Positions 20,718 through 61,813 of a stretch of 64,000 nucleotides of DNA are shown here, piece after piece. The DNA is from Sporopachydermia quercuum. Lineage: Eukaryota. The notes below the pieces were generated by a model. The model made no database searches and had not been told where the DNA came from. It saw only the letters and a list, made by a program, of their open reading frames with translations. The first letter of the stretch is position 1; each line of letters starts with the position of its first letter. The position numbers and the translations under genes were made by a program. The stretch is taken from assembly GCA_001599295.1 (NCBI GenBank), contig BCGN01000012.1, positions 248,001 to 312,000 of the forward strand, written 5' to 3'.

Positions 20718-21698
20718 ATGCAACCAATTAATCTCTTATCAGCAACAATTGCATTGGCTGGTCTCATGTCATCAGCCTCCGCTTTCAAAGACACATCACC
20801 AGGAATCTTTTTATCAGCTGTTACTGCAAATGAACAACAAGCGGAGATCTTGAAGTTAGTCGATTCAAGTGAAAAAAATGCAGCATATATTGAGTCTTCA
20901 TTGTCTTTTTTAAGCTCCATCAAGCATCGATTACATAACATCTGCTCAACATCCAACTCCAATGACAACAGCATAAATTTTCTTTGGGTTCATCAGCCAG
21001 GCCTTCATTCTAGTGATTTGACAAATCAGGTTGCTGCGCCGTTTTTAGCTTCCAGAACAAATTTCATATCTTCTAATAAAGGATTAAGTGACTCGAATGT
21101 TTCATATGACAGTGTTGTTTCACCTAACGTTCATTTCAAAGAAAACGACGCCGAAACTTTTTATAAGTATGTCTTTGAGTTGATTGAAGAAGACTGTGCT
21201 GACGCTATTGCCTCAGGTAACGTAGTTTTTGAACAACTTGAGAAGAAGACTTTGACAACTGGAGCTGAAAGAAAGCAACAACTCAAGAAGGTTGATGAAG
21301 AAATTGCCGAAAAATTGAGCAACGTGAATACTGATTATGTCATTTTATTGACTTCCTCACCTATAGTGGAAAATGAAGAAACTGAAGGATTCTTGGATAG
21401 TCTCAAGAAGTCTGTCGATGAACTACTTGAAGAAGTTGAATCTGAAAGAGAGGAACTGGGAGAACTTTTAAAAGAGGAACTATCTAACTTGAACAAGCGA
21501 TCATCAGATGAGCAGTACCAGGCGAGCAGCTTAGTAACGAAATATACATTCTTTTCACCTGGTATCTGGATGACAACTTTAATTGCACTGTTTTTACTTT
21601 CAGTTTTCATCGTTGCTTTAGGTTGGGTCAGCTCATTGGATATTAGTTACAAAGCTTTTGACAAGCCTCCAGAGTATGTTACCAAAAAGGCTCAATAG
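20718..21698 (+). CDS. VOA1: V-ATPase V0 assembly factor Voa1 / Ac45-like type I membrane protein
   Basis: Signal peptide; C-terminal YTFFSPGIWM-TM-WVSSLDISYKAFDK pattern of Ac45/Voa1; KKAQ dilysine end; linked to SRB5 and VMA21 as in S. cerevisiae. Confidence 0.75.
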   Translation: MQPINLLSATIALAGLMSSASAFKDTSPGIFLSAVTANEQQAEILKLVDSSEKNAAYIESSLSFLSSIKHRLHNICSTSNSNDNSINFLWVHQPGLHSSDLTNQVAAPFLASRTNFISSNKGLSDSNVSYDSVVSPNVHFKENDAETFYKYVFELIEEDCADAIASGNVVFEQLEKKTLTTGAERKQQLKKVDEEIAEKLSNVNTDYVILLTSSPIVENEETEGFLDSLKKSVDELLEEVESEREELGELLKEELSNLNKRSSDEQYQASSLVTKYTFFSPGIWMTTLIALFLLSVFIVALGWVSSLDISYKAFDKPPEYVTKKAQ

Positions 21699-21915
21699 AT
21701 AACTTACTTTTGAATGTTATCTCAACTCAAAATATTTAATATATACAGATACATAATTGTATTTCCCTGAACAGTTCGTGAAATTGAACAATGAAGGTGA
21801 ATTAAGCATTCTCTCAAGTGTTGTTCAAAGGAAAATAAAAAATAAGAGATAAAATTGAGCAAAACGTAGGAGAAGAAACTGATAAACTCACAGTGTTAAG
21901 CTCAGGATACTTCAA

Positions 21916-22971
21916 TTACTTTTTCACTCTTGAATCCATAAAGTTTCTCTCTGGTATACCAAGAGTTACTAGTTCACCCAATTCTCCCTGTAATGTCTCT
22001 ATGGCTTTCGTTACCCTATTTATACTATCAATATCCGTAGATTTCTCAACGTTCGCAAATACTTTGAGGAAGTAATTGCGTCTATCGGGGTCTAATAGCT
22101 TTAACTTTGAAACTTGAATAGAAGCATTAGCTGTTTCTTCTAAAGGTCTCTTGAATAGAGGATCATTGATTTTCACAGGAATAGTTTCGATCGCTTGATC
22201 ATCTCTAACATATACGCGGAACACTTCTGCAATTAAAGTAATATTATCGTTCATATGAAGGTAAAAGCGGGAACCTTTAACCCAATATTCCAGTTCTAGG
22301 GCATATCCTAAGTTATATAACAAAGTAAACACATTGTTATCATATCGGAAAGTTCTTGAGGTCGGAGCGGGTAGGTCAGCGGGGTTCAATAAATCTGGAA
22401 GCTGCTGGTCACCTCGCTTCAACGGATATGAGTAAGGGAACAACGGCGTCGGCTGAGCTTCAAAATGACTTTCTGTTATAATTTGAGACGTTACCTTTCG
22501 TTTGCCTGCTGCGGGAATATCACTTGCAGTTAGAGTCCAAGGATTGCCTTTCAGTAGTTCCACATCATCGAAGTAACTGGTAGAATATATTGCTTCTTCT
22601 TCTACCTTTTTGTCACCGTCAGCACTGGAATCATTATCACTTTTCAGATTTTCTAGGAACTTTTCGTTTTTGAAGGAGAGCAGCTGTCTTAATCTTCCAA
22701 CAGCTTCCGTTGCATCTTCTGGCCCTGATTCTAAGAGATTAATATATCTGTTGTAATCATTCAAATACACACTGGTGCTCATTTTCAACCTATATTGATC
22801 GTTCGATTGTTTTGTTACTGAGTCAGGATTAGGTTCTTTGTATGGTTTAATGTTGAGGATGTGTAAGAATATAGGATTAGGAGGAGAGCTCGATAGAGCT
22901 ATTAGAGATGATATTAAAATTGGAAGCGTCGTGGGGGATACGCTCGCACTCAAACTCAATTGCTGTACCAT
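21916..22971 (-). CDS. SRB5: Mediator head subunit Med18
   Basis: MVQQLSLSAS start, PWTLTASDIPAAGKRKVTSQ, LGYALELEYWVKGSRF, C-terminal PERNFMDSRVK. Confidence 0.9.
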   Translation of the reverse strand: MVQQLSLSASVSPTTLPILISSLIALSSSPPNPIFLHILNIKPYKEPNPDSVTKQSNDQYRLKMSTSVYLNDYNRYINLLESGPEDATEAVGRLRQLLSFKNEKFLENLKSDNDSSADGDKKVEEEAIYSTSYFDDVELLKGNPWTLTASDIPAAGKRKVTSQIITESHFEAQPTPLFPYSYPLKRGDQQLPDLLNPADLPAPTSRTFRYDNNVFTLLYNLGYALELEYWVKGSRFYLHMNDNITLIAEVFRVYVRDDQAIETIPVKINDPLFKRPLEETANASIQVSKLKLLDPDRRNYFLKVFANVEKSTDIDSINRVTKAIETLQGELGELVTLGIPERNFMDSRVKK

Positions 22972-23650
22972 TGTTATATAATATATTTAGTTTTTAGTCT
23001 AACAATGATAAATATCTTCACAATTGATATGCAATGCAATGTCTTTGATAATAATCACTTTTTGAGTCCTACCAATCACTCTACCTAATTGGCATAATAC
23101 ATTGTCTTCGAGAGAGCTTAGAGGGAAATCAACAGAAAAAAGAGGCAGGCTCTTCTTTAACTCTCAAAATCCGTTGACATATACTGCAAGCAGATAAATG
23201 TCTGAATTGTGTCTGTCTATAGTATGTTTATGTGATAAACAAGTTCTACCCATGACAAATCACATATCCTGTTGATAACGGGAAGGAACAGAAGATATGT
23301 ATGTATATAACGGGGGTAAATCAGAAGACTAGAAAGATCTGATCCACAATGTGAGTTATGAGACTTGCGATGGAAATGGAATCTTCTTAATTGATGATAG
23401 ATGATATAAACAATAAGTGGTATAAATATTGTTAGGATGAGAAATTAAATTGTAAGTAATAAATTCAGTTTATTATATACAGTGGTTAGCTTTTCTTTGT
23501 ATATGGTTGATATACCAACAGCGTACTGTTGTTGAGTAGTATGTAGTATACAGTTTGATGTCCTATTGTGGTCCCATATGTGAACGGTTGATTCAATTGT
23601 CAGTAAATTGAATACAAACACGAAAGAGTAGCAATAATAAGGGACTGCAA

Positions 23651-24037
23651 TTATTTCTCCTTCTTCTCTGATTTTTCGTCTGTCTCAGTAGTATCTTCTA
23701 GAAATGCAACAACGACATATCCGATCAATACTAAATTAGCAACGAAAGCCGCTATGCCCCCAGACCAAATCGCATTCCCATCTACCAACAATGTTAGTAA
23801 CATCATCATGAAAGATAATCCGATCAATTCCACGACACTCATTTTTCTCGGTTAACATACTTGTGAGATATTGAATAATAAAAAATGTGAGAATTGGCGC
23901 AATCACCATGAGAGCTGTGAAGAGTATCAGCTTTTGAACAACTGATCTAAATAATTGTTAGTTTCTTCTGGATACAGCCTCTACAGCCTGTTTCTTTCAA
24001 TTGTACCCAAAACCTACCTTGGAATATCGACAGCCAT
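23651..24037 (-). CDS. VMA21: V-ATPase assembly factor Vma21, 78 aa; exons 24037-24018, 23946-23861, 23781-23651
   Basis: Splices to [29 protein letters not shown]...[24 protein letters not shown]...KKEK. Introns GTAGGT..AACTAAC..TAG and GTATGT..TACTAAC..TAG; total 237 nt, in frame. Confidence 0.93.
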
Positions 24038-24490
24038 TATTAGTACGGAGAAAAACGGTCAAAACTACTGTTTTATTCGATTACAAATCTAGGCTGACCG
24101 GCTGATTGCATTATTGTTGTTCATTAGCGCGAAGTACTTTTTCTTCATAATGGCAATCAAGACGTCAAGGAAGAAATAGGTAGATCGAAAGTGCCCCATC
24201 CTCTATCATGTGAGATGAGACGTAATCCTATTATAAAAATATTTCGGAAATAATATTTGTTGAAGAGAATCATCATCTCCGAAATATTTATTAAACATCC
24301 TAAAGAGATAACAACAAGGAGGAGAGAGGACAAAATTAGCAGTTGAAACCAGGTTCCCAATATATAAAACCTGGATCTGAATAACTAAATACAGGAGTCA
24401 ATTGTAAAGGTTGAGATCATGTCTTGTTCTTGCTTCTTGAGGGTTGTCACTTTTCTTACTCCCTAGGTGGATGATACGACCATAGCGATC

Positions 24491-24650
24491 TATACGAGTC
24501 TCGAGAGATAGCGTCCGGAAAGTCGAATCAACAAACGAAATTCTTTTCCACTTTCAAGCCATAAAGACGGACAAACCTTGGAAAACTCAATTGAGGGCAC
24601 ATCAAGTCTCCCTGAAGACAATCAATATGCTACGCATAAACGATGAACGA
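24491..24650. promoter_or_regulatory. Sterol regulatory element-like sites (Upc2/Ecm22 type) upstream of ERG24
   Basis: TATACGA at 24491-24497 and TAAACGA at 24637-24643 (reverse complements of TCGTATA/TCGTTTA), ~310-460 bp upstream of an ergosterol gene. Confidence 0.55.
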
Positions 24651-24950
24651 AGAATGAGATCATTTATCATGGAGTCATCTTGTTTTCCTTTCAATTAAAT
24701 AAAAGTTACTAGTTAATAGGCTTTACAACTAACTAAAACTGCTGAAAGATATAAAGGTCAATACGTGCCAATATAAATTAAGAGGTCAGAATTGAGCGCA
24801 CTTTTATCCCTGCCATAGATACTCCCATCCCCTGGTGATTGGCAACATACTTACTACTTCTATAATGTACGACTATCAGACAATAGTTGATTTATAACCT
24901 ACACGATTAGTATATCAACTCTTAGCAGCTACCCTAAATACAACTAGTTC

Positions 24951-26300
24951 ATGGTTGAATTTTACAATTTTATGAAAATGAGCAATCTAACTTTAAATCC
25001 AGAAACGCCAGAAAAAGAATTTGGTGGCTTTTTCGGGGCTCTGGCTATCACTGTGTTTCTACCAGCTTTAACGCTGTTCGTAGACCTTCTATGCAATCAC
25101 AAGCATTGTCCTAAAACACTGTCAGAACAAATAAGTACATGGAATATTGTGGTTGGTCAATTGAAAAGCTTAAGTATCTCTGATGTTTTTTTTGATTGTA
25201 CGGCTTGGAAGTTCTATCTTTCATGGTTTGGTGGTTTGGTTGTTCTGGAGAGAATTCTACCGGGAAAGACTCTTAAAGGGATAAAACTAAGAAGTGGTGA
25301 TCAACTGGATTATAAGCTCAATGGCAAAGCTTTAGTAGGAGTTTTTTTTGCTGTTTTAGTAGCAAGATTTATTGCTACAAGTGGAGACATGCCTGAATTG
25401 GTTTATATATACTACAATATTCTACCGTTAACAGGAACCTCTATTCTTTTCTCATTCATAGTTGCAACTTGGTGCTATATCAATTCATTCCTTCCCAATT
25501 TGAATGGTAAAGAGAAAGTGCTAGCGTTAGGAGGAAATTCTGGTGATCCATTATTTGATTGGTTTATTGGCAGAGATTTGAATCCTCGTATTGGATCTTT
25601 TGATGTCAAACTATTCTGTGAAGTTCGTCCCGGCCTACTTTTATGGTCTCTTATTAATATTTCAATGGCTCACCATCAATGGCAAACTTTGGGGTACATT
25701 GAGGACTCTTTAGTATTAGTTCTATTATTACAGGTATTCTATTCTGTCGATGGTGTTTTAAATGAGGATGGCATTTTGTCAATGATTGACATTACCACTG
25801 ATGGGTTTGGGTTCATGTTAGCATTTGGTGATTTGGCTTTAGTTCCTTTCACCTACACTTTACAGACCCGTTACCTTGCCAATATTGCAGAACCCATTCA
25901 TCTTGGACCTTTTAAATGTGTGTTGATCATTGGTTTAAAAGTTGCGGGATACCTAGTTTTCCATTTCGCGAATGACCAAAAAGCAAAATTCAAGTCTAAC
26001 GATCCATCTGCTAAAGATATCAAATACATCTCTAATGAAAAGGGTTCCAAACTGATTATTTCTGGATGGTGGGGAATGGCTCGTCACATCAATTACATGG
26101 GTGATATTTTAATGGCTCTTAGTTGGTGCCTGCCCACTGGGTTTAATACACCTTTTACATATTATTATGTGTTTTATTTCATTGGCCTCTTAGTTCACAG
26201 AGAAGGCAGAGATGAAGCAAAATGTTCTCAGAAATATGGAAAACTATGGGAAGAATACTGTACTAAGGTGCCATATAGGATTTGTCCCTATGTTTACTAA
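24951..26300 (+). CDS. ERG24: Delta(14)-sterol reductase (start may be the downstream Met of MSNLTLNP)
   Basis: LNPETPEKEFGG, DWFIGRDLNPRIG, DITTDGFGFMLAFGDL, LIISGWWGMARHINYMGD, KVPYRICPYVY. Confidence 0.95.
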   Translation: MVEFYNFMKMSNLTLNPETPEKEFGGFFGALAITVFLPALTLFVDLLCNHKHCPKTLSEQISTWNIVVGQLKSLSISDVFFDCTAWKFYLSWFGGLVVLERILPGKTLKGIKLRSGDQLDYKLNGKALVGVFFAVLVARFIATSGDMPELVYIYYNILPLTGTSILFSFIVATWCYINSFLPNLNGKEKVLALGGNSGDPLFDWFIGRDLNPRIGSFDVKLFCEVRPGLLLWSLINISMAHHQWQTLGYIEDSLVLVLLLQVFYSVDGVLNEDGILSMIDITTDGFGFMLAFGDLALVPFTYTLQTRYLANIAEPIHLGPFKCVLIIGLKVAGYLVFHFANDQKAKFKSNDPSAKDIKYISNEKGSKLIISGWWGMARHINYMGDILMALSWCLPTGFNTPFTYYYVFYFIGLLVHREGRDEAKCSQKYGKLWEEYCTKVPYRICPYVY

Positions 26301-26599
26301 AGGCTTAAACGGTTGAGCTCTTGATGCTACATATTTGTTTGTATTCACAAATAGTGCAATAGGTTTAATGAACAGAAAGTAAATAAAATTAATGTAATCA
26401 AATTATAATAAAACAAAACTATGCTAAGTGAAAGAAGAGTTTCGGTAAGATTGTAAAAGACATGAGTACTTTACTAACATTGAAAGTAATAATATGAGAT
26501 TATTTAATATATTAACCTACCTTCTAAATAATCATATACACACTTTGGTTTCTAGAAAGAAGTTCCCAATCTCAGTTCAACCGGAACTATTACTACTAA

Positions 26600-28459
26600 T
26601 CAACCTTTTCTTTGCTTCTTCCCTAACTTTTTCTTTTCCCTCTCAATTTTTCTCTTCTTCTGGATCAACTCATCTTGTCGACTCTCCTTCTTCTCGTTAC
26701 TATACTGCATCTTCTTATATAATTTCTTTTGCTTGTTGCTCATCATCATCAATTTCAGCTGCTTGGCTTCTTCTTCTTCCTTCTCTTGAGCAGTCTTGGT
26801 ACGTTTCTTTCCTTTAGCATTAATCACTTTAGGTTGTTCATTCTTAGAGTATGCAACACCAGCGGCTTCCAATTCAATTTCCTTCTGTCTATTATAGTCT
26901 TCATCTTCACTTTCCTCTTCTTCTTCATCTTCATCTTTTGCATTTTCATTTTCTTCTCCTTCTTCATCTTCAATCTCTTCTTCACTTTCAGCGACTTCTT
27001 CATCTTCAGCAATTGGAGCTTCTGGGTCATATCCACCAGCATCACCCCATGGACTTAAATGAGGAGGTAGTGTTTCACCTGGGGCATAATCACTGACATT
27101 TAATAAAGTACCCTTATTGATGGAATCAAATATCCATTGAGGTTGGACATATGTTCTACCAGCTACTTTGGATGAAATCACTTCACGATCAGAAACTTGA
27201 TGCGTAATTGAAGACAAGTCAATCTTGGCTTTGGATTCCTCGTCTAGTTCATCAAGTGCGGCTTCAGAAATAAGCTTACCACCACATGCTACAATCAAAA
27301 ACTCAATGATATCTAAAGGAACTTCTCTTCCAACAAAGAATGTCATAGATTTGAATAAATCTTCTTGAGGTGACTCAGTGGCTAATGGTTGAGCTAAAAC
27401 ATCTCCACTAGGGGTGTTTTCTGATTTTGATGTAATTGGTTGAAATTCATCCAAAGCGGCTTCCTCTGATTCTCCATCTTCTTCATTCTCTTCTTCTTCG
27501 GTTGTCTTAGATTCAGTCTCCTGAGCGTCTCCTGTTTCTTGTTGCTGTTCAATCTTGTCTAGCTGTAAAGTTTTGATCTTAGCTGATGTCAATTTCTTCA
27601 GAGAAGTATTGCTTTTGGATTCCTGACTGCCATCTTCCAGTTGTCTGATAGCCTCATCTCTGCCTTTCAGAATGTATGCGCTCAAACCACCAACACCATT
27701 TATCTTGGCCATATCCATCACAGGAGGATAGATCAAATTGCTGTCTGTATATAACTTGAATAAAACGAAACGAATTAAAGTAACATAGAACTCCAAAAAG
27801 GTAAGCATAATACGGAAATCAACATCGCTTGGCACATTTTGAGGAAATTTGAATGGAACCAACCATGTGATTTCTTGACCCCGGATAACTGCTTGGTAGT
27901 AGACACCTCTAATGGATACAAAGACCTTTCTCAAAAGCTTCTCCCTTGCAACATAAGCCATCCAGTGCATGCAAATCTTTTCAGCATCCTCTGTGAACTT
28001 TTGAGATACTTTATCTGAGGCAGGTAAATTGGCAAACAAAAAGATCATTGACAAGGCATCATCAATATCTCTTAATGCATCATTAAAAGAAGGATATCTT
28101 TCTTTGATTATATTATCCAATTTATATTTTGGTCTATTCTTATCCAATCTAACTGCATCACTTACTTCGTTTCTTCCTAGTAATCTAGTAAGTTTTTTGG
28201 AAAAAGTCTTATGTTCTCTGAATTTCTGCAACACTGGTTCATGCATAAGATATTGAATATCTTTGATATAATAGAAAGTCACATTTGCAGTAGAACCCTT
28301 GTTCGCCTTCTTCTTGTTTCTTGGCTCTCTAGGGAAAATGCCTTTGAAAATACATAACCTTCTGAAATCAGCTAATGATACTTGCAACTTCTTCACTGCC
28401 TGAGTTCTCGTGATGAAGTTCTTGGCCGCACCGGCCTGATGCTTTTTCTTAATTCTCAT
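26600..28459 (-). CDS. NOP7: Pescadillo homolog (PeBoW complex)
   Basis: MRIKKK...[34 protein letters not shown] ([12 protein letters not shown]); LPPHLSPW; acidic tract; [11 protein letters not shown]. Confidence 0.97.
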
Positions 28460-33212: not shown

Positions 33213-33726
33213 TACTTACAGATGGCTAAGAAATTAATCGTAGGATGTGATATGGGACATTTTGTTTAGGGGCTACTCGACAAGTGACAATAAGTGGGGG
33301 TCGTTGTGAAGATCAGTATGAGTGCGCGGGTGAAGAATGAGCATATATGCTTTGATGGAAAAACTTCTATGTTGGTGGAATGTTAGATACCTTACTGTAG
33401 AGAGGAAGCATTGCATAAAGATTCCGTCATGATAAAGAAACGTTTCGTTTATTTATTGTTTAAGGTTATTTTATGTTCTTTTATAAACTGGATTTATTGA
33501 TAAAGACTACCAAATCTAAAAACAATGTAAGATCGTTAAGTAAAATAAAAATAAACTATCTTAACAGAAATCAAGAAGCATATTGATTGTAATCAGCATA
33601 ACTGAACATAAAGTTTTTTCATAAATTGACATTTGTACGTAATTTATTCATATGTTTCGTTGACCATAGTCTAAACATCAATCATTCACACGGAAATTCA
33701 ATATCTCACTAGGACAATCATAACAA

Positions 33727-35450
33727 TTATGGCACATTGAATAAAGAGAATTGACGTACGATACCAGGTCCATATTCTTCGTAATCTTGTTTGGTATGGC
33801 AGTAACTCTTGAACTCCGCAGTTTGAGCTAATAAACTGCCACCAAACCAAACAGCGTTTCTCTGCTTCTTATGACTGATAACCGACACTTCAACACCAGT
33901 ACTCTTAGCTTTTGATAAAGCTTCAGATTTATGAATACGGGCATCGACAAGTGTCCTTATGTCGCGCTGTAATCTTCTACCGAAATCCTTAAACATAGTG
34001 GAGCCTCCAGACAAAACGATATTTTTATATAAACCTTTTCTGACATCAATTGGGGAGCTTTGGATTACTTGATCAACGATTTTAGGAAGAGGAGTTAAAA
34101 AGTCTGACGATTGGATTTCTGGGTTGAAAAATATTTCAGGAGCAAGAAATCTTTCATAACCAACATCAACTGTAACTCTTCTGTCTAATCTTTGATCAAC
34201 AATGTACTTTTGGAATCTATCAGGTTCACGATCAAATCTGTTAAACTCCTTCACAATATCTGGACAAACATAACAAAATTCTTCCTTGATTTTTTCTGCG
34301 GTTTTCAAACTTGTATCAGGTTCACCTCGGTCTCTTAGTAAAGTTTGGATAAAAGATGTAATATCTCTTCCTGCAATTGGGATATTCTTGATGGCTGAAG
34401 CAATCACATAACCTTCTGCTACAGGTATTACATGAGTAACACCATCACCAGAATCAATGACAGTACCGGTTAAAGAACGATCATGAACCTTGGATGATGT
34501 CCAAGAAGCAGCCAGTGCTAACACTGCTTGAACAGCAATATATAGGCCAGCACAATTGAATGATTCAAACATAATTTCAGCTGTATTTTCTCTGTTTTCT
34601 GGAGCATTCAATGGTGGTTCAGTAAGTAGAAAGTAATGGTCTTCTGGTTCACATCTTAAGTACTTGAAAATTGAATTCTCCCAGAATCTTTCCATATGAT
34701 CCCAGTTATCAACTTGACCATGTCTGATAGGGTAGTTCAATCCATAACCTATATTGTTTGTTAGGATGCAAAAATAAAATTATTGCTAGTAAATTGGCTG
34801 TATACTCAATTATAACATACCAGGACCTGATGCAGCCGCCAAAGCTTCATCACCAATATAGAAATCTAAGTCTGCAGTCCCTTTGTTGGCAATATTCCCA
34901 CCGCTACCAGAGCTTTTTGATTTTGATTCTTGTCTTGTAGCAATCGTAGTGGGGAAAATAAACGATGGAGAGTCGTTACCGGCAAAACCAATTTTGGTCA
35001 ATCCCGTACCGCTATATATAGTTAGTATCTATACTTAGGGCTAATTGAGTCGGTAGTACTCTTGTCTTAACTTTAATTTTGGTTGATTATCGTTGATTTT
35101 GATGAAAAGGTGTAATAGTACTAGCAATCTAATGTATGAACATTCAAAATGTATAGTTCTTCTGATAGAATACATCATTCTACTTCATTGCACATACACT
35201 ATGACAAGTGTCGTTTCATTATTTTCGTCAATCCCTAATCCTTCGAAAACAATAACAATTTTTTCAAACAATAGCTCAGTAACTTACTTGTCTAAAAGAA
35301 ACAGGGGTTAGTAAAGTGTGAGAAAGACTCTGATAGCTATTCCTAATCGGTTTCTCATCAATATTTCAAGCTCGGATAACTAACTCCTCTTAATTAATAT
35401 CAACAATCAAACATACCCATCACAACGGCAGGTGCACCCATGTTAGCCAT
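33727..35450 (-). CDS. ARP3: Actin-related protein 3, 416 aa; exons 35450-35417, 35291-35288 (4 nt), 35011-34821, 34748-33727
   Basis: Splices to [34 protein letters not shown]...[14 protein letters not shown]. 34+4+191+1022=1251 nt. All three introns have GT donors, CTAAC branch points and TAG acceptors. Confidence 0.95.
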
Positions 35451-41429: not shown

Positions 41430-43412
41430 ATGGCTCAACAACAAATGATGGCCATGCCTGATATGTCCAATGCCATTATGGCTCAGGACGAGATGGGAAG
41501 ACCATTTATAATTGTCAGAGAGTAAGTATTTAATGGTGGATTGATAAGAAAGGAGGTTAAATGAGGAATTTTGGATAGGTCAGGGATCACTATAATTGAG
41601 GATTACTAACCTGAATATCTTTAGTCAAGGAAGTAAGAAAAGGTAAGCAACAATGACAACTGAAATCAATCTGGCTTTTTTGGACTGTAGATGTAATAGG
41701 TCTTTTTATGTGATGCTGTATCAATGGTTTGATTGCTGATCTTACTACAGTTTTGTTACTGTCATTGTCGTGGGAACCTCATTGATTGATCTACTGGGTC
41801 ATAGCATACAAACTGCTTTACCTTAGCGCTTACGTGCGAACACATACTAACATTTTATCCATTTAGAGCCCATGGAATTGAAGCTGTCAAATCACATATT
41901 CTAGCGGCCAAGAGTGTAGCAAGCATCATTCAAACTTCCTTAGGACCTCGTGGTTTAGATAAAATATTGATTTCACCAGATGGAGAAATCACCATAACGA
42001 ACGATGGTGCTACAATTTTGAGTCAAATGGAATTAGATAATGAAATTGCCAAACTATTGGTACAATTATCAAAGTCACAAGACGACGAAATTGGTGATGG
42101 CACTACTGGTGTTGTTGTGTTGGCTGGTGCTTTGCTAGAGCAAGCCAGTGAATTAATCGACAAGGGAATTCACCCAATTAAGATCGCTCAAGGTTTTGAT
42201 CAAGCATGTAAAGTGGCTGTTGATCATCTTGATTCTATTGCTGATGAAGTTCCAGTTTCAAGCGAAGATCGATCCAATTTACTGAAAGCTGCCAAGACAA
42301 GTTTAGGTAGTAAGATTGTCTCTAAATCACATGAGCAATTTGCTAAGATAGCAGTCGATGCAGTGTTATCAGTAGCTGATTTAGAGAGAAAAGATGTGGA
42401 TTTTGAGCTCATCAAAGTTGAAGGAAAAGTTGGTGGATCCATAGAAGATACTAAGTTAATTAAAGGTGTCGTGATCGATAAAGATATGTCACATCCTCAA
42501 ATGCCAAAGACTTTACATGATGTGAAATTGGCTATCTTAACTTGTCCATTTGAACCACCAAAGCCTAAGACTAAACATAAGCTTAATATCTCCACAGTTG
42601 ATGAATTCAAGAAGCTTCAAACATATGAACATGATAAGTTTGTCGAAATGATTCACCAAGTGAAAGAGGCTGGTGCTAATTTGGTTATCTGTCAATGGGG
42701 TTTCGATGATGAAGCTAATCATTTATTATTACAAAATAACTTACCTGCTGTTAGGTGGGTTGGTGGTCCAGAAATCGAGCTCATTGCTATTGCAACTAAT
42801 GGTAGAATTGTTCCGAGATTTGAAGATCTTGCACCTGCAAAGCTGGGAACTGCCGGCTTGGTCAGAGAAATTAGTTTTGGTACTACAAGAGAGTCTATGT
42901 TAGTAATTGAAGATTGTGCTAATACCCGTGCTGTCACTGTTTTAGTTAGAGGCTCTAATAAGATGATTATTGATGAAGCCCAAAGAGCTCTTCATGATTC
43001 ACTCTGTGTCGTTAGAAACCTTGTACGTGATAGTCGTGTTGTTTATGGTGGTGGTGCTGCCGAGATCTCCTGTTCTTTAGCAGTCAGCGAAGAAGCTGAC
43101 AAGAGATTTGGAATTGAACAATATGCTATGAGAGCATTCTCATCTGCTTTAGATCAAGTTCCACTGGCTTTGGCTGAAAATTCAGGTTTAGCTCCTATTG
43201 AAACTTTAGCAACTATTAAGAGTAGACATGTTTTGGAAAAGGTCTCATGTTTAGGTGTTGATTGTATGGGTAAAGGTTCTAATGATATGAAAGAGCTTTA
43301 TGTTATTGATCCACTCATTGGTAAGAAGCAACAGTTGTTGTTGGCTACTCAATTGACCAGAATGATTCTCAAAATCAATGATGTGATTATTTCTGGTAAG
43401 GATAATTATTGA
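41430..43412 (+). CDS. CCT5: Chaperonin CCT epsilon subunit, 551 aa; exons 41430-41521, 41625-41642, 41867-43412
   Basis: [33 protein letters not shown] after splicing; [44 protein letters not shown]. Confidence 0.97.
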
Positions 43413-44069
43413 GTGGTGTGAACTGATACTTGTATAATTGTAAAGATATCTTGAGGAGCTATAATAGATTTTAATATCAGTAATCATTTACTATTTTTCA
43501 TGTTGTGGTAAACCAATTAGTCTATTACCGCTCATAGGGTGGTGATGAATAATCTTTAAAGATTAAATAATCCCATATTCTATTTAATCGCAAAGATCAT
43601 GCATTAGTTAGCATTGCATTCAATATCATGTTCAAAGCTGTATTTTCAAGTATTAATACCTATTTGGGATCACAATTGACTTAGTAGCGAATTGAAAGAA
43701 GACAATTATACTTAATATAAGAAGATGTTTCAAATATTAGAAAGACGCCAACCTAACTATAAATCTCCAAGTCAACTAGTATATTATCATGTGATTTGGC
43801 CTCTTATAATGTACCATATGCCCTGGTTTGGGACACGATTTTCTTCTTTGAACCTTTATCTCTGTTACTAACCTAACTCCCAGTTTGTAAACCCAACAGT
43901 TCATTGAACCCTTCATATCTATTAACCCTATTCGTCTTCAGTATTTTTGTTGCTGATATATTGTTCTCGTCCAATTGATGCAAAGAAGCTAGGTAGTGAT
44001 TGTTCGGTTTCCTTCAATCTTACGTCGCCATTCGGAAAAAAGATAGCAGCACATTTCGATCACATCGCA

Positions 44070-44831
44070 ATGGCTGTTCCTGATTTGCTTCTAGATCCCA
44101 ATCTAAAGTATTGGGTTCTTTTCCCTATTTTTTTTGTCATGATTCTCGTAGGAATGCTCAGACACTATGCTACCATTCTTTTACAGCCAAAAGCAAAGCT
44201 TGTGCCATTAAAGCAGCTACGGGAACAACAATTCCTTCTACTTGGTTCAAGTTTGAAAGCTACTTACGATGTTATGCCATACAGCACCTTCGATGGTCTA
44301 CGATCCACATTGGCTGCGGATTTCAAAGCGGGAGAATACCTACAAAACCCTGAATTGAAAGGCAAGGCTCCGCCAAACGTGTTGACTGATCCAAAGGCAA
44401 CGGAAGGCATGATGCAAATGATGAAAGGGAATATTGCCATGATTGTTCCCCAGACACTTATGATGAGTTGGATCAATTTCTTTTTTGCAGGATTTGTTCT
44501 ACTGAAGCTACCATTTCCCTTAACTGTCCAATTCAAATCTATGTTACAGTCCGGTATAGCCACACCTGATTTAGATGTTCGATGGGTTAGTTCTATTTCC
44601 TGGTATTTCCTTTGTTTGATTGGTCTCCAATCAGTTTACAGTTTGATTCTTGGCGATGATAATCAAGCCGGTAGTCTGGTTAATTCTCCTCCCCCTCAAA
44701 ATGCGATTCAACCAGGTGTTGATGTTTCTAAGATATTCGACAGTGAGGCTGAAAACTTGGATTTGATTAAACATGAATGGGTTCTTGAGAAAATAGAGAA
44801 ACGAATGCTTGAGATGTATGGATTGAAATAG
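44070..44831 (+). CDS. EMC3: ER membrane complex subunit 3
   Basis: ATG 44070 MAVPDLLLDPNLKYWVLFPI; PFPLTVQFKSMLQSGIATPDLDVRWVSSISWYFL. Confidence 0.94.
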   Translation: MAVPDLLLDPNLKYWVLFPIFFVMILVGMLRHYATILLQPKAKLVPLKQLREQQFLLLGSSLKATYDVMPYSTFDGLRSTLAADFKAGEYLQNPELKGKAPPNVLTDPKATEGMMQMMKGNIAMIVPQTLMMSWINFFFAGFVLLKLPFPLTVQFKSMLQSGIATPDLDVRWVSSISWYFLCLIGLQSVYSLILGDDNQAGSLVNSPPPQNAIQPGVDVSKIFDSEAENLDLIKHEWVLEKIEKRMLEMYGLK

Positions 44832-45366
44832 ATATGATTTATTAGCAGGGAATGTCTATTGCAACTCGAGCTCGAGTTTCGAGATAAGTATATTTGTATG
44901 TGAATGGAGATAATGAGAGCAATTTGGAGGATCGATGGGTAGTTGAAAATGAAAGATTTACTAAAGGTTTTAAATGTACATTGCAGTGATGGACATTTGG
45001 GTGCTCTTAGTATAACAATCGTATACTTCTCTTGGTGTTATCCTTACAAGTGTGTTTGAATATCATATAAGGACAGTATGAATGTATACAAATTATGAGA
45101 TGATAATTTTTTTTCCGGAAATTACTTTCAATAATTAATTGGTGCTATGGCGTCTTCATTAGATGTTCATGACTGTTTATGATTAATATATATTTGACTA
45201 TAAGAATATCACCAGTTCCCTTTTGATAGTCTTCATGTTTATTGATCCAACTAAGACCCTTGATATTCAAGGAAACTCCCACAGCTTTCCGAATGCTGTA
45301 CAATATTTCGTCTCGCCAATTTTTTTTTTACCTATTCTCGCGCAAGGTGTTTTTCAATATTGCTAA

Positions 45367-46354
45367 TCAGTTGTAAAGACCTTCCTCTAGCGAAACAGGA
45401 ATACCTCTTCGACCATACAATCCTTTCCAAGACACAGGGGTTATCCATTCCACTTGCTTATCTTCACCTACAGACTGAGATATGTTCAATACTTTTAAAA
45501 CCTTGCCAGCTAGTTGTTGTGCGTCTCTTGAATTATCTCCCTCATATACAAACATGATTAGCCCTGTGACTTCAGGCAAGGTATTGATTGAGGATTCATT
45601 CTCTCTCAGCACTTCATCCAATATGTACTGTACTATTTTATTCTTAATAACGTAATGTTCATCATTTCTTTTTGCTTTCGCTTCGCTAAATATCAGAAAC
45701 AGGTTATTGAATACTGAGATATCGCAGACTTGTTGTAAAAATTCTGTATTGCTTTCTAGATTCAGATTTTGTATTTGAGAAGTCAATGAAGTGGAAACCG
45801 CAAAGAAGGGAGAGCTAAAAGATGTTAATATTGATAGAGCTATACCTAATAAGAGAATGTATCATAGCTTCCTTAAAACCACTGTGGTTCCACCAAATAT
45901 ATGTTTCCTTTAGAACATACCTGTCGAAATCAATTCTTAGTCCCGCATCTGCAGATCCTAGAAGAAGCACACTCGCAAATTTGCCTTGCAAAATAAAGGG
46001 TATCAGTACTTCCTTGAGAAACTGTAGAGAACGCCCTGGAACTATAGGCGACCTTTGCTGAATCACTGTGTAATTTTTTTCTTTGCTTTGGTAAACATCT
46101 AGTGGCAAAGAGAGGCCTTTGGTTGATTCTATCTTCTCAAGATCTGCCGTATCAACTGGGCCGACAATTGGGTAAAGATAATCGTGATTTATAGAACCAA
46201 TATGTTCCAAACTTAGGGTATGAATAAGTAAATCCACAGCTAGTTGAGGTGTGTTTCCCATAGAAACTGTCGGAATAATTAGAGTGGATCCTGATAAGGA
46301 TTCTACTTGGAATTCATGCTTTGAGGGCGTGAATAGATCTGTTGCAATAGTCAT
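45367..46354 (-). CDS. ADD66: Proteasome assembly chaperone 2 (PAC2/Pba2), 293 aa; exons 46354-45921 and 45814-45367
   Basis: LIIPTVSMGNTPQLAVDLL, VIQQRSP, C-terminal WITPVSWKGLYG...GLYN; 106-nt intron GTATGT..TATTAAC..TAG keeps frame. Confidence 0.85.
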
Positions 46355-56461: not shown

Positions 56462-58488
56462 TCAATCAATTTCTGTGAACAATGAACTTGAATAAGTCTT
56501 GCAGTCGAGCTGCTCAAAGCTCTGGTCTGAGTTCGTTATCGTCAATACGGAAAGCTCGGATGACAGAGGAATTGACGATATATTATCGACAGTTATAAAT
56601 TGATTTTCTGTTTCTTCTTCCCTTTTGCGCTTAATGACTGAATGGGAGGTAGTGTGCTTTTTATCATGAGATGGTAGTCTATTTTTTGATTTGGCTTTAG
56701 GCATGTTTGGACATTTATTAATTGTTGTGTTAATTAAATTTGGTTGTGTATCCAACAGGGTTTGAGAAGGTTCTATTTTAACACTGAAGGGAAATATGTC
56801 GATATTGGGTTCATTTTCCTTATCAGTTGCGGAGTTCAGTGATTGTAATGTTCTATTTGAGGATATAAGATTCTGCTCATCCCTAGAAACAGTAGAAGCG
56901 TCAGAACAGATAGTAGAAGCGTTACTGGAATGATTGGGCTGATCCTTGGAATGTTGCTTGCAGAGGAGCATTTCCATTCTTGATGAATGAGTGTTTTTGC
57001 TGTTATTTTCACCGTTCTTACTGATTGTGTGATCGCTATTACTATTTTCTCTTGGAATGATACTACTGTTACATTCTGCTTTTGATATAGCACTGTTGAT
57101 AAATGCTAGCATCACTTCATAAGGCTACAAAATGTTAGTAAAACCCTCTGTTGAACGATTTCCCTTACAAATCCATTTGATACTGTCAAAATATCTGCAG
57201 TGAATGAAATATTTGTCCTATAATATCTCAGAACTGAATCCGTATCCCTGTGATAATGTAGAGAATTTATTACGTACGAATGATTTCTCATAGAATACTT
57301 TAACTCTTGCCGATTGCACGTTCTGAAGGAACGTTTCTATAGACGAATTCAACGAGGAATAAACAGGAAGAATGTTCTTGAGTTTCTATGATAGTTAAAA
57401 CACATTATTGTTAGATGTTGCCTGTTCAGGCTTAATCATATGTCTGCCGAACAATTGTCCAGCATTTTGACCAGTGAAGCATACTTCTCTCACTATTGGA
57501 TCGAAACCTACTGGAGATGCAACCGACAATGAGTGGATTACATTATTGAGACAGGTGTTCACATTCTCTAAAAATTTGCTTATAGTTTCTTTGGAATATG
57601 TTGAATCTGGCATGATTTTTTGGGAGTTGCTAACAATGGCAGTAGCATGGTTGCTTGTGTGAATTGTATGGTGACTGAAATCTTCATTATCTTCAACCCA
57701 AATATCAGCTTCAGTTAAAGTGATTGTGTTTCTACCGCTGTAAGATATATAATGAAGAATTTCTGGGTATCTACTCAATAAGTTGCATGATAATAATACT
57801 AAATAATATAGTTAGATGTCATTTGATCGAGCGGCGGTAGCTTCACTACTTTTGAAATGCTTGGAACTGGGAGAATTACTTGTTATTTGTTGATTGCCAC
57901 AGCAAATGCATCTGCTATCTGACAAGATTTGAGCTCTGTACTGTATGGTGCTCCATTGCTATAAGAAACTGGTTAAATAATGACTAATCAGGCTGATACC
58001 AAATAGTAACATGGTACTCAACTATGGGAAGACTTTTCTTTTTTTGCACCTTATGCCTTATATGAACAATGAATGAAGTACGTACTTTCACATTTGACAA
58101 AGCTTTCACCAATTGGCTTATCAAATGAATCCTATGAATTTTGTCATAGTTTTTAAGTATGAAATGCAGATTGATCTGATTTTAGTATTAGTAACGTTCT
58201 GTTCTTCTCAAACGAATGTGCAAGAACTAACTTCCAAATAAAAAAATAAAAAAATAAACTTGATAGGCCATTTATGGTTCAGCTCTCCTGTATAGTAATT
58301 CTATATATGGCACTTACTGGGAAGCATTGCTTTGGTAGAATGATTGATTGGTCATCGCCTGATGGTGTGTCAGACTGTTTTTCAGACGCGTCTTCGGAAG
58401 AGTTGAGATTTCCTTCAGTTTGATACAATTTTGATCTCCATTCATAACGCAAACAGTTGTAGGTTGAACTGCCCCTGAGATGCTCCAT
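56462..58488 (-). CDS. REC102: Rec102-like (TopoVIB-like) meiotic DSB protein, ~474 aa; exons 58488-58318, 58175-58086, 57958-57880, 57798-57485, 57385-57278, 57124-56462
   Basis: Hand-spliced CDS of 1425 nt is open throughout. Blocks IILPKQCFPINLHFIL, KQWSTIQYRAQ, ITILLSCNLL and HSLSVASPVGFDPIVREKLK align with recalled Rec102 blocks. NMA1 lies nearby, as in S. cerevisiae. Confidence 0.7.
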
Positions 58489-59469
58489 TATTGTTGTACA
58501 ACAAACTGGGTTTGAGAAAGAGGAAAGTTATTTCCAGTTATACATTGACAATCGAGAAAACAGAAGAATAGAGTGAATAGAAAAATAGAAAGAATTGTTG
58601 ATAATGAACATGATAAAAACTAAGCAGTAGCCAGTGACCAGTCAAGACAATATAAGTTCTGACTTAAGAGAAGAAGGAATAAAGAATAAGTAATAAAAAA
58701 CTGGAATATTTCATTGTTTTGAAGAAATTAGAAGAGCATCTGTTGTTAATTGTTGTTTGGGGTTACAAATAGGCTGATGAGAAAAGTAATTAGAGTTTAT
58801 TTGGTAAGAACTATTTTCTGGTTTGAGATTTTAAGTTGCACAGATTGAACTTAATCTAGCGAGGAGTGGTGAAACAAGTTAGCATTAGCAGTCGTTAAAG
58901 AAACAAGATCGCTTGCAAAACATACAATCTGTAATATTCGAGCAAATTTATTTCTCTGACAATAAAATATACTTTTATAATAATGATAAAATAATAGATT
59001 GGATTGTAAGGTCATTTTCATTGTCGGTGAGAGATTACTATATGCTGACTGATAGTCTAACTTTCAGCAGGGGATACTCTGTCTATAAATAAATATACTT
59101 AATATGTCTCCACCTAAAATAAATATTAAAACCAAATTAATTTGTAACTTTACCCAAACTTCATCGATCTAAACTCTTTGCTTCGATGGAAACTATATCA
59201 AACATTATATTTCTTCTTGAACGTAGATTAATCTTCACCCGTCAACAGACGACTAATCGCTTTCACCTCCTAAACATTTTCCTCCCAAGTAACTCCCATA
59301 CACCTCCTATTTTAATCTCCTACCGAAAGCATTTACATGCAATGAAGCTCTTCAAATCAAGTATCTCATTAATGGAAGGAGTTCATTATTGATGCTACGG
59401 CAATACGACATGACTACAGAATTCCTCTCTTTAAAATAGTTATCATCTCGCACATATTTTGTATTCAAG

Positions 59470-60204
59470 ATGCATAGAGGACCTATAAAACCATTGCAAT
59501 TGAGAATACCCAGTTATATACAAGATAGACCTCTCATATTCCCCAAATCTCCTACAACACATCTTCCGTATCCGAAGAATATAGATAGAACGACATTCAA
59601 CAGCGAAGTGTTCAACAAAAGTGTGTATCGAAGACTCTTAAGATTAACAAACGCTATATGTAAAAGTGAACTACACGTTTGGGTATATCATAATCTGATA
59701 AGGAGAAGGTTTGAAGAGGACTATGAAACAAGGAGAAAGTTTTATTTCCCTGATAGAGAAGAGCAGGATAGGATAAATGAGCAACAGGAAAGTGGTCACC
59801 ACGAACAAATTGCTCTGTCAGCATACGAAAATAACATTATAAGTATTTGGAGGACATTGGAGTTTGTCAACAAAGCATGTGCCTTCAATGAAAAAGAATC
59901 AAAGCTTGCTGATTATAGAGTAAAACTGAGTGATGGTGAGGTAATGTTCAATCCAATAGAAAGAACTATCTTACACAACATTTTATTTAATGAGTGGAGT
60001 AGAATTCATAATTCCAGAGCAACTGTTACGGAGGAAGATGTGGCTTCCGTAGTGAAAACCCTATTAAATGACAATTTTAATGTTGACTTAAAACAAATGA
60101 AGCGAAATAAACGAAAGTTTGAAACTTATACAAGGGCTATAAATTATATTACATTTGAAAGAAATTTGATCTCACTGAATGACAGTTTATCTTTAAGACT
60201 TTAA
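59470..60204 (+). CDS. IRC19: Irc19/Rrg4-like protein
   Basis: VYRRLLRL, RTLEFVNKAC, ILHNIL, C-terminal FERNLISLNDSLSLRL resemble recalled Irc19. Confidence 0.75.
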   Translation: MHRGPIKPLQLRIPSYIQDRPLIFPKSPTTHLPYPKNIDRTTFNSEVFNKSVYRRLLRLTNAICKSELHVWVYHNLIRRRFEEDYETRRKFYFPDREEQDRINEQQESGHHEQIALSAYENNIISIWRTLEFVNKACAFNEKESKLADYRVKLSDGEVMFNPIERTILHNILFNEWSRIHNSRATVTEEDVASVVKTLLNDNFNVDLKQMKRNKRKFETYTRAINYITFERNLISLNDSLSLRL

Positions 60205-60475: not shown

Positions 60476-61813
60476 TCAATCCATCCCATTTTTCATCACC
60501 TCTTTGACGGGCTCGGATCCTCCAATATAAAGACCATTATCTTGTATATACCTTATAACACTATTGGGCAAAAGGTATTGAACGGACATGCCTCGTCTGA
60601 TAAACAACCTTGCCTTGGTTGAGGAAATATCATTATATATTAACTGTTTGATCACTAACACATTTCTGCTGTGTTCATACATGATATCATGCGACAGTAT
60701 AAAATTACGAACGTCAGTTCCTGTTCGCTCCACAATAAGACATCCATATCTTCCTAGTATATGATGCAAATCATCTTCTGCCCATACATTGGGCTCACCC
60801 ATAGATTCAATCAAATCCCCTCCTGCTAGCAACATTATTTTTACTCCTCTTGAAGCTCCAGATTTTAATTGTACTCCACCCCTTTTAACATTAATCTCTT
60901 CATTAAAATGGTCCAATACTAATGCTGTTCTAGTATATGTTAGCTGCAGAGATTCCCATGCATCAACCATAAGCCAGGAGCTTGTTCTCTCACATGCCAG
61001 TTCACACATTCTGACTCTATGATAAGCTGGTGCTAATCCTGGCTTTTTATAGTTATCAGACACAGGGGAATAGTAACCCCCGATAACTTCAAACCTTGTA
61101 TATTCACGAATAGAATCCATTGCCATTTCGAACATCCGTAAATGTAAGTATGTAATTGGTGAAAATGATCCACAAGCTACTATAACCAATGGCAGCTTAC
61201 TCTCATCCACCATAGTATTCACTAATCGATGAGTCGGAAACTTATATTCTTCCATTGATCTTCCTTGTCTTTGAATGCCATGAGGAACTTCTTCCAAATC
61301 AGCAGTAAGACCAACAGGGGGAACGTATTCTCCAACATGGTTTTTAAGTCTGGCTATTTGATAGGGTGAGCTTTGGGTGCTAATTGATTGTTGGTTTTCG
61401 TTTGCGTTATGGTTCTCATTCTGATTATCACTTTCAGAACCTGAATCCTCATCAGATGACATCAATGGATTGAACATTTCATTGGATACTGGTATAGAGT
61501 TACTTATATAGCGACTTTTCGTATTGGTAGTAATATCACCACCACTTGTCCCTGTAGTGATAGAGGAAGATGATGCATTGCTGTGAAATAGGTTTGGGCC
61601 TGTTCTTTGCTTAGAGTGGCTCAATCTATGAGCTCTGCGGGAAATTGATTTCTTCTCTGCCGCTGTTGGTGGAGCGTCAATGGCATTGTTATCATCTTCT
61701 AAAACATACGGCTGTATAGGTGCTATGTTAGGTATCAGATATGAAGGTGTCCTTGGTAGTTTGACGTCAGCCCTATTAGCGGGTTTGAAATTTGGGTCAA
61801 GTTTCGGATCCAT
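60476..61813 (-). CDS. NMA1: Nicotinamide/nicotinate mononucleotide adenylyltransferase
   Basis: MDP...PNFKP start; PLVIVACGSFSPITYLHLRMFEMA; SSWLMVDAWES; NDISST. Confidence 0.96.
   Translation of the reverse strand: MDPKLDPNFKPANRADVKLPRTPSYLIPNIAPIQPYVLEDDNNAIDAPPTAAEKKSISRRAHRLSHSKQRTGPNLFHSNASSSSITTGTSGGDITTNTKSRYISNSIPVSNEMFNPLMSSDEDSGSESDNQNENHNANENQQSISTQSSPYQIARLKNHVGEYVPPVGLTADLEEVPHGIQRQGRSMEEYKFPTHRLVNTMVDESKLPLVIVACGSFSPITYLHLRMFEMAMDSIREYTRFEVIGGYYSPVSDNYKKPGLAPAYHRVRMCELACERTSSWLMVDAWESLQLTYTRTALVLDHFNEEINVKRGGVQLKSGASRGVKIMLLAGGDLIESMGEPNVWAEDDLHHILGRYGCLIVERTGTDVRNFILSHDIMYEHSRNVLVIKQLIYNDISSTKARLFIRRGMSVQYLLPNSVIRYIQDNGLYIGGSEPVKEVMKNGMD

Follow-up and report, generated by a model that had tools for sequence, protein, structure and literature searches.

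A probable, highly diverged REC102 gene with five predicted introns near NMA1 in the yeast Sporopachydermia quercuum

A 64,000-nucleotide (nt) stretch of the genome of the yeast Sporopachydermia quercuum (assembly GCA_001599295.1, contig BCGN01000012.1, positions 248,001 to 312,000), referred to here as the window, contains at positions 56462-58488 of its minus strand three longer and three short open frames that join into one spliced frame of 474 codons. This locus is a real six-exon gene, so far unannotated, with splice junctions predicted from the sequence. The gene is probably this yeast's orthologue of REC102, which encodes the transducer-only TopoVIB-like subunit of the Spo11 core complex. 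This assignment is based on the agreement of three mutually independent features of the candidate, namely the site of an intron, the position near NMA1 and the register of a weak similarity to Rec102 of Saccharomyces cerevisiae. An initial annotation had proposed a REC102/TopoVIB-like gene at this locus; the intron, synteny and weak collinear similarity described below argue for that proposal, while neither a profile match nor a usable fold was obtained for it. REC102 is already known, with a solved structure and a Pfam family of its own, and the candidate is a very diverged new member whose notable aspects are the conserved intron, the five-intron structure and an added tail.

The frame begins with an ATG at 58488 and ends with a stop codon at 56462-56464, with exons totaling 1425 nt (stop included), equivalent to 474 amino acids (aa). 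Exons are joined at 58318/58175, 58086/57958, 57880/57798, 57485/57385 and 57278/57124. The predicted exons and introns are as follows.

58318..58488, minus strand: exon 1, 57 codons from the ATG at 58488, with putative first sheet strands and an acidic/Ser-rich loop.
58176..58317, minus strand: intron 1, 142 nt, phase 0, GTAAGT ... TACTAAT ... CAG, at the site of the single REC102 intron.
58086..58175, minus strand: exon 2, 30 codons, with INLHFILK (strand-D equivalent) and an amphipathic helix.
57959..58085, minus strand: intron 2, 127 nt, phase 0, GTACGT ... TTTAAC ... TAG, with a weak branch box.
57880..57958, minus strand: exon 3, 79 nt, beginning with QW; Trp89 pairs with Rec102 Trp91.
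57799..57879, minus strand: intron 3, 81 nt, phase 1, GTAATT ... TCTAAC ... TAG, with the weakest 5′ site and one in-frame stop.
57485..57798, minus strand: exon 4, 314 nt, with strands (YPEI...), TEADIWVE as the equivalent of the switch loop, an insert of 36 aa and the beginning of the stalk helix.
57386..57484, minus strand: intron 4, 99 nt, phase 0, GTATGC ... TCTAAC/TTTAAC ... TAG, with two in-frame stops.
57278..57385, minus strand: exon 5, 36 codons, in which the stalk continues (KLKNIL...).
57125..57277, minus strand: intron 5, 153 nt, phase 0, GTACGT ... TACTAAC ... TAG, with two in-frame stops.
56462..57124, minus strand: exon 6, 220 codons and the stop, with the last helices followed by a tail of about 200 aa, rich in Ser, Asn and Thr, in which residues 397-425 form a basic cluster.

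Each of these introns has a [CT]TAA[CT] branch-like box located 10-30 nt before the terminal CAG or TAG. Homology-supported introns of the window served as a splice reference: an actin-related gene has three introns with GTATGT and TACTAAC-type boxes, and a CCT chaperonin gene has two, with GTAAGT and GTAAGC 5′ sites and TACTAAC boxes. Relative to these, introns 1 and 5 are ordinary for this genome and introns 2 to 4 are sub-consensus, the weakest being intron 3, due to its GTAATT site, and intron 2, which has no good branch box. The lengths of introns 3, 4 and 5 (81, 99 and 153 nt) are all multiples of three, an arrangement expected by chance in about 1 case in 27, and hence exons 3 to 6 share one frame that is broken by five stops. 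Retention of any one of the five introns would introduce an in-frame stop, directly for introns 3 to 5 and via a frame shift for introns 1 and 2. The tail (residues 271-474) consists of 17% Ser and 11% Asn and is not present in S. cerevisiae Rec102.

A dynamic-programming search was utilized to find the longest ATG-to-stop frame with up to five introns of the same signal classes as those of the candidate. Applied blind to the locus, this search returned exactly the six-exon model of 474 aa, identical to the frame that the initial annotation had spliced from its six pieces, as compared with 216 aa when no introns were allowed. None of 200 dinucleotide shuffles of the locus reached 474 aa (mean, 67 aa; maximum, 139 aa). 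In 308 real windows of 2.4 kb taken from both strands of the 64 kb, a gain of at least 100 aa through introns was detected in 24, and four or five introns were used only in the three windows that overlap the candidate locus. Extension of the search by 1 kb upstream left the model unchanged under strict signals, with no upstream coding exon being detected in this interval; longer models obtained under relaxed signals were rejected, as these reach to within 15 nt of the start of the neighboring gene. Codon usage was scored after training on 17 long open reading frames (ORFs) of the window, with CTG being read as Leu (three of the five CTG codons of NMA1 occur at Leu residues that are invariant in six relatives). 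The proposed frame scored best of the frames in five of the six exons, the exception being the 79-nt exon 3. The total score was +41 bits, or +0.087 bits per codon versus 0.17-0.36 in the 17 training genes, a low score as expected of a weakly expressed gene.

A low codon score would also be exhibited by a locus that is not a working gene, whether open frames and splice-like signals strung together by chance or the decaying remnant of a REC102 gene whose expression or splicing has ceased. The weak signals of introns 2 to 4, and the pseudogene-like appearance of exons 3 to 6 as one frame with five stops, are likewise points for this explanation and against a functional REC102. However, every one of these stops is located inside a GT ... 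branch box ... AG segment, the frame is intact over all 474 codons, and no such chain was produced by the shuffles or by any other of the 308 windows. Furthermore, the in-frame codon score was positive in four of the six exons (about zero in exon 2 and negative in exon 3) but negative in all five introns. A non-working locus is, hence, considered highly improbable.

A reference for REC102 was sought in metagenomes, where the conserved core of the NMA1-like gene of the window identified 25 loci. Two of these (L016 and L017) are of the S. cerevisiae type, with the order DUF4112 gene-NMA1-REC102-CHS5-MID2. The 206-aa exon 2 of the L016 REC102 gene corresponds to residues 59-264 of PDB 8urq_B/8uru_B, ‘Meiotic recombination protein REC102’ (3e-133), and matches the Pfam family REC102 (PF21736) at 2e-50. 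Exon 1 of this gene has 58 codons and is followed by a 97-nt intron (GTATGT ... TGAAG) inserted in phase 0 between Lys58 and Ile59. The S. cerevisiae Rec102 sequence blocks and the intron before IKLNF, both cited in the initial annotation, were genuine as judged from this locus.

The best alignment of the two proteins placed Ile59 of S. cerevisiae Rec102 on Ile58 of the candidate in all five scoring schemes. The sole intron of REC102 and intron 1 of the candidate are, therefore, at the same phase-0 site, an exact coincidence in line with the earlier suggestion of a shared intron before INLHF/IKLNF. When intron coordinates were kept and sequences shuffled, the S. cerevisiae site was matched by at least one of the candidate's four phase-0 introns in 0, 4, 6, 6 and 6 of 1000 shuffles under the five schemes. 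Similar lengths of exon 1 (57 codons in the candidate and 58 in S. cerevisiae) are apparent without any alignment. Trp91 of Rec102, described in the cryo-electron microscopy paper as nearly invariant in eukaryotes (PMC11746154), aligned with Trp89 of the candidate, again in five of five schemes. The spacing from the strand-D Ile to this residue is 32 residues in S. cerevisiae and 31 in the candidate, and a Trp is present at the WKxY position, which follows the helix after strand D.

The candidate is located downstream of an NMA1 orthologue and on the same strand, with a single ORF of the opposite strand in between. The features of this interval are as follows.

60476..61813, minus strand: NMA1/NMA2 orthologue (nicotinamide mononucleotide adenylyltransferase; Pfam CTP_transf_like, 2.2e-17), upstream of the candidate and on the same strand.
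59470..60204, plus strand: 244-aa ORF between NMA1 and the candidate, divergent from the candidate and outside its gene model.
58856..58925, minus strand: possible leader intron of 70 nt, GTATGT ... GCTAAC ... TAG, 370 nt upstream of the candidate start codon.

The core of the NMA1 orthologue has 82% identity to the S. cerevisiae-type NMA1 of L016. REC102 of S. cerevisiae is YLR329W, located beside YLR328W (PMC1079824). NMA1 had been described in the initial annotation as a neighbor in both yeasts; it is the upstream neighbor in the S. cerevisiae-type locus, but here the neighbor is not immediate, the 244-aa ORF being interposed. No further REC102 relatives were detected beside NMA in the other 23 loci by tblastn, phmmer, Pfam (53 ORFs plus read-through frames) or alignment z-scores, and the NMA1-REC102 linkage is not general among yeasts. 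A YPEI-like tblastn match in locus L013 was rejected, as it contains a stop and adjoins a tRNA-like stretch.

Residues 1-275 of the candidate were compared with the 264-aa S. cerevisiae Rec102 in six combinations of scheme and mode. The z-scores ranged from 1.1 to 2.8, the observed score was equaled or exceeded by 15-143 of 1000 shuffles, and only 1-23 of 232 decoy segments of the same length taken from real proteins scored as high as Rec102. Six unrelated ORFs from other NMA loci had z-scores of −1.45 to +0.91 under a scheme that gave 2.3 for the candidate. When the comparison was split at the switch loop, the observed score was reached by 43-297 of 2000 shuffles for the N-terminal half (34 identities in 142 aligned positions) and 51-103 of 2000 for the C-terminal half (15 in 48). 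The local alignment of the C-terminal half begins at Ile165 of Rec102, which is the reported start of the stalk (PMC11746154), and pairs it with I186 of the candidate after the 36-residue insert. Strand C and the switch loop of S. cerevisiae (S147-E164) pair with S132-E149 of the candidate (SKEGNYVE versus TEADIWVE). In the stalk, I195, R197, L200 and K201 of Rec102 are paired with I215, R217, L220 and K221, while the essential R199 is paired with K219. The initial annotation had reported four Rec102 blocks aligning in order. Three of these were reproduced in unbiased alignments, but the pairing of VILSLKCTIL with ITILLSCNLL was not, as the aligner pairs ILS...C one strand earlier. This similarity, taken by itself, is suggestive of a relationship to Rec102 rather than proof of one.

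A number of results weigh against the assignment to REC102. Four residues of Rec102 (K60, K79, L198 and W202) are not conserved in the candidate, and no clear equivalent was seen for the first sheet strand (L8, V10 and F11). The top match under standard local scoring was off-register (candidate residues 56-132 on Rec102 residues 129-196) and not significant, being equaled in 143 of 1000 shuffles; the same off-register match was obtained with hhalign on the two single sequences (candidate residues 1-275; P, 0.17). When the spliced protein was used in a phmmer --max search of every ORF in the retrieved loci, the REC102 ORFs were not picked out. Other profile, database and fold queries consisted of single exons and read-throughs, one of which (P0002) is the exon 3-6 read-through with stops given as X. 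The profile match to Rec102 that the initial annotation had put forward as a check was not obtained: PF21736 matched neither P0002 nor the read-through of exons 4 and 5 nor the translation of any of the six exons at an E value of ≤10, with the whole 220-aa exon 6 being covered at an E value of ≤1 only and its first ∼66 aa at ≤10. In phmmer searches of all PDB sequences with exons 1, 2 and 4 and P0002, 8urq_B was never listed at an E value of ≤10. Exon 4 had no relative among 1.84 billion representatives in a full HMMER scan; the sole match, a 2053-aa bacterial repeat protein, was rejected as a chance likeness to ITYTVTYSGANTITL-type repeats. The word-index protein database had no match for exon 4 or P0002, the Atlas had no usable match for exon 4, and a scan of metagenome contigs with exon 4 produced 180 pattern matches, of which none was confirmed. 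Structural support was likewise not forthcoming, as AlphaFold2 modeling of P0002 without relatives had a predicted local distance difference test (pLDDT) score of 30.2 and a predicted template modeling (pTM) score of 0.19. Finally, URS1 and MSE motifs were not found upstream of the candidate. Failure of Pfam and phmmer searches is expected for many true members of the family; identity between Top6BL orthologues is given as ∼11% in a review (PMC12203943). The HMMER filters also drop weak matches.

These negative results would be explained if the locus were a genuine gene with several introns that encodes a nuclear protein specific to this lineage and not related to Rec102, with the proximity to NMA1 and the likeness being due to chance. 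Consistent with this explanation, searches of profiles, the PDB and other databases produced no match, the pairwise scores are marginal with the top local and hhalign matches off-register, one ORF separates the candidate from NMA1, and the NMA loci of other yeasts have no REC102 neighbor. An unrelated gene would, however, require three separate coincidences: a match in intron position and phase that was seen in only 0-6 of 1000 shuffles; placement downstream of NMA1 on the same strand; and a collinear similarity, present in both halves, that exceeds that of 90-99.6% of decoys taken from real proteins and keeps the near-invariant Trp aligned. We regard an unrelated gene as unlikely and orthology with REC102 as the probable explanation of this locus.

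The organization of the predicted protein can be described by analogy with S. cerevisiae Rec102 (PDB 8URQ/8URU). Residues 1-150 would form a central sheet with short helices, residues 151-185 a long loop at the position of the switch loop and residues 186-270 a kinked stalk and a helical hairpin that clamps the winged-helix domain of Spo11. These ∼270 folded residues may act as a transducer-like B subunit, enabling Spo11 to make the double-strand DNA breaks with which meiotic recombination starts. S. cerevisiae Rec102 is reported to have no ATPase domain (PMC11746154; PMC7968521). A GHKL domain is also absent from the candidate, in which only 57 residues precede the strand-D equivalent and no upstream coding exon was detected under strict signals, and no ATPase families were observed in Pfam scans of its exons and read-through.

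With five introns, three of which have sub-consensus signals, output of the protein would depend on efficient splicing, and this splicing is possibly regulated in meiosis. Several meiotic genes of S. cerevisiae, including REC102, are reported to carry introns, and the 3′ site of REC102 is described as poor (PMC3082912, PMC3226532); regulated splicing is, therefore, a reasonable hypothesis. A more elaborate proposal would have Rec102 gated by splicing, and hence off outside meiosis, with the tail as a docking module for break-forming factors that either stands in for Rec104 or takes the role of the interaction between TOPOVIBL and REC114 reported in the mouse (PMC9671922). This combined proposal is considered unlikely.

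Several other features of the locus and its surroundings were observed. The possible 70-nt leader intron looks well formed and is preceded by an ATG at 59021, resulting in a 46-aa spliced upstream ORF; the element at 58856-59021 may represent either an intron of the 5′ leader accompanied by an upstream ORF or a tiny gene of its own. A GC-rich word, GAGCGGCGGTAGC, is located at 57825-57840 inside intron 3 and is similar to the URS1 core of early meiotic genes without matching it; in the 64 kb, which has 36% G+C, GCGGCGG is present at just two sites. An Rfam search detected only a sub-threshold match resembling a small nucleolar RNA, on the opposite strand. The 244-aa ORF had no match in Pfam or the word-index protein database; its nearest relative in an Atlas feature search was ‘Increased recombination centers protein 19’ (Irc19, PF27708; score, 0.92; 207 of 256 features), which is a lead only. 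A second NMA paralogue is present elsewhere in the genome, on a second contig of the source assemblies with 46 differences in 246 nt over window positions 60953-61198. Searches of four DNA contig sets returned the source assemblies and, in two other organisms, only the conserved NMA core.

Further genes of the window are the following.

33350-35450, minus strand: actin-related gene with at least three 5′ introns.
41430-43412, plus strand: CCT chaperonin gene, with a micro-exon of 6 codons at 41625-41642 as well as two 5′ introns.
14572-18531, minus strand: 1319-aa ORF encoding TPR repeats and, at 4.9e-97, a GT41 domain (O-GlcNAc transferase type).
2343-6830, plus strand: 1495-aa ORF with no Pfam family at an E value of ≤0.001.

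An enzyme of the GT41 O-GlcNAc transferase type is not known from S. cerevisiae. Gene-order blocks resembling those of S. cerevisiae were observed at 20718-28459, with Voa1-type, Med18 and pescadillo genes (and an inserted ERG24), and at 43947-46354, with EMC3 next to a PAC2-family gene; the genes of each block are presumably adjacent in S. cerevisiae.

Rec102 and other TopoVIB-like proteins evolve too fast for sequence searches, and the candidate was revealed only by gene order and a common intron site. An ORF-based method of gene calling would miss such a five-intron gene. If the assignment is correct, the sole intron in REC102 of S. cerevisiae would be old and retained from a multi-intron ancestor, and the candidate would provide a very distant budding-yeast Rec102 for telling which residues of the Spo11 interface matter. 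The switch-loop insert and the tail would mark places where the family tolerates or gains modules. The known picture of Spo11 action is unchanged by the candidate. TopoVIB-like proteins have been traced across eukaryotes (PMC9665070). The statement in the initial annotation that Spo11 partners are rarely detected in distant yeasts was too strong, as a REC102 gene has been named in species of Ogataea, which do not belong to the Saccharomyces family (PMC6692504).

Systems for comparison include TOPOVIBL and MTOPVIB of mouse and plants and Top6B of archaea, which have the same role as that proposed for the candidate, namely that of a B-type partner of Spo11/Top6A. The sheet, Trp motif and stalk of the transducer are proposed to be common to all of these proteins (PMC11746154, PMC9665070), whereas a GHKL or GHKL-like domain is carried by TOPOVIBL, MTOPVIB and Top6B and only 57 residues precede the strand-D equivalent of the candidate. 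No element resembling that of mouse TOPOVIBL for interaction with REC114 was recognized in the candidate. The Rec102/Top6BL homologues of Neurospora crassa and Sordaria macrospora, compared here by their description in the cryo-electron microscopy paper, are fungal transducer-type proteins like the candidate (PMC11746154). According to that source, their switch loops were truncated for clarity in a figure, and annotation of the S. macrospora gene had produced a mis-spliced model (PMC11746154). In the candidate, too, the switch loop is the site of a long insert, and the gene is one that annotation would miss. The direct comparison is with S. cerevisiae Rec102 (YLR329W; 8URQ/8URU chain B; PF21736). 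The candidate differs from this protein in having five introns instead of one, an acidic loop before strand D that is 12 aa longer, deletions of 8 aa (∼101-108) and 4 aa (∼129-132) in the extra-strand region, the 36-aa insert at the switch loop and a putatively disordered tail of ∼200 aa that replaces the 34-residue C-terminal extension; identity is ∼24-31% and confined to the aligned blocks, and neither HMMER nor Pfam searches gave a match. Common to both are a transducer-only layout without a GHKL domain, a folded part of similar size (∼270 residues in the candidate versus 264), the phase-0 intron site before Ile-x-Leu-x-Phe, the WKxY-position Trp, the YPEI strand motif, a (Y/W)VE sequence closing the switch loop, the stalk block I..R.(R/K)LK and a location downstream of NMA1, with both genes on one strand.

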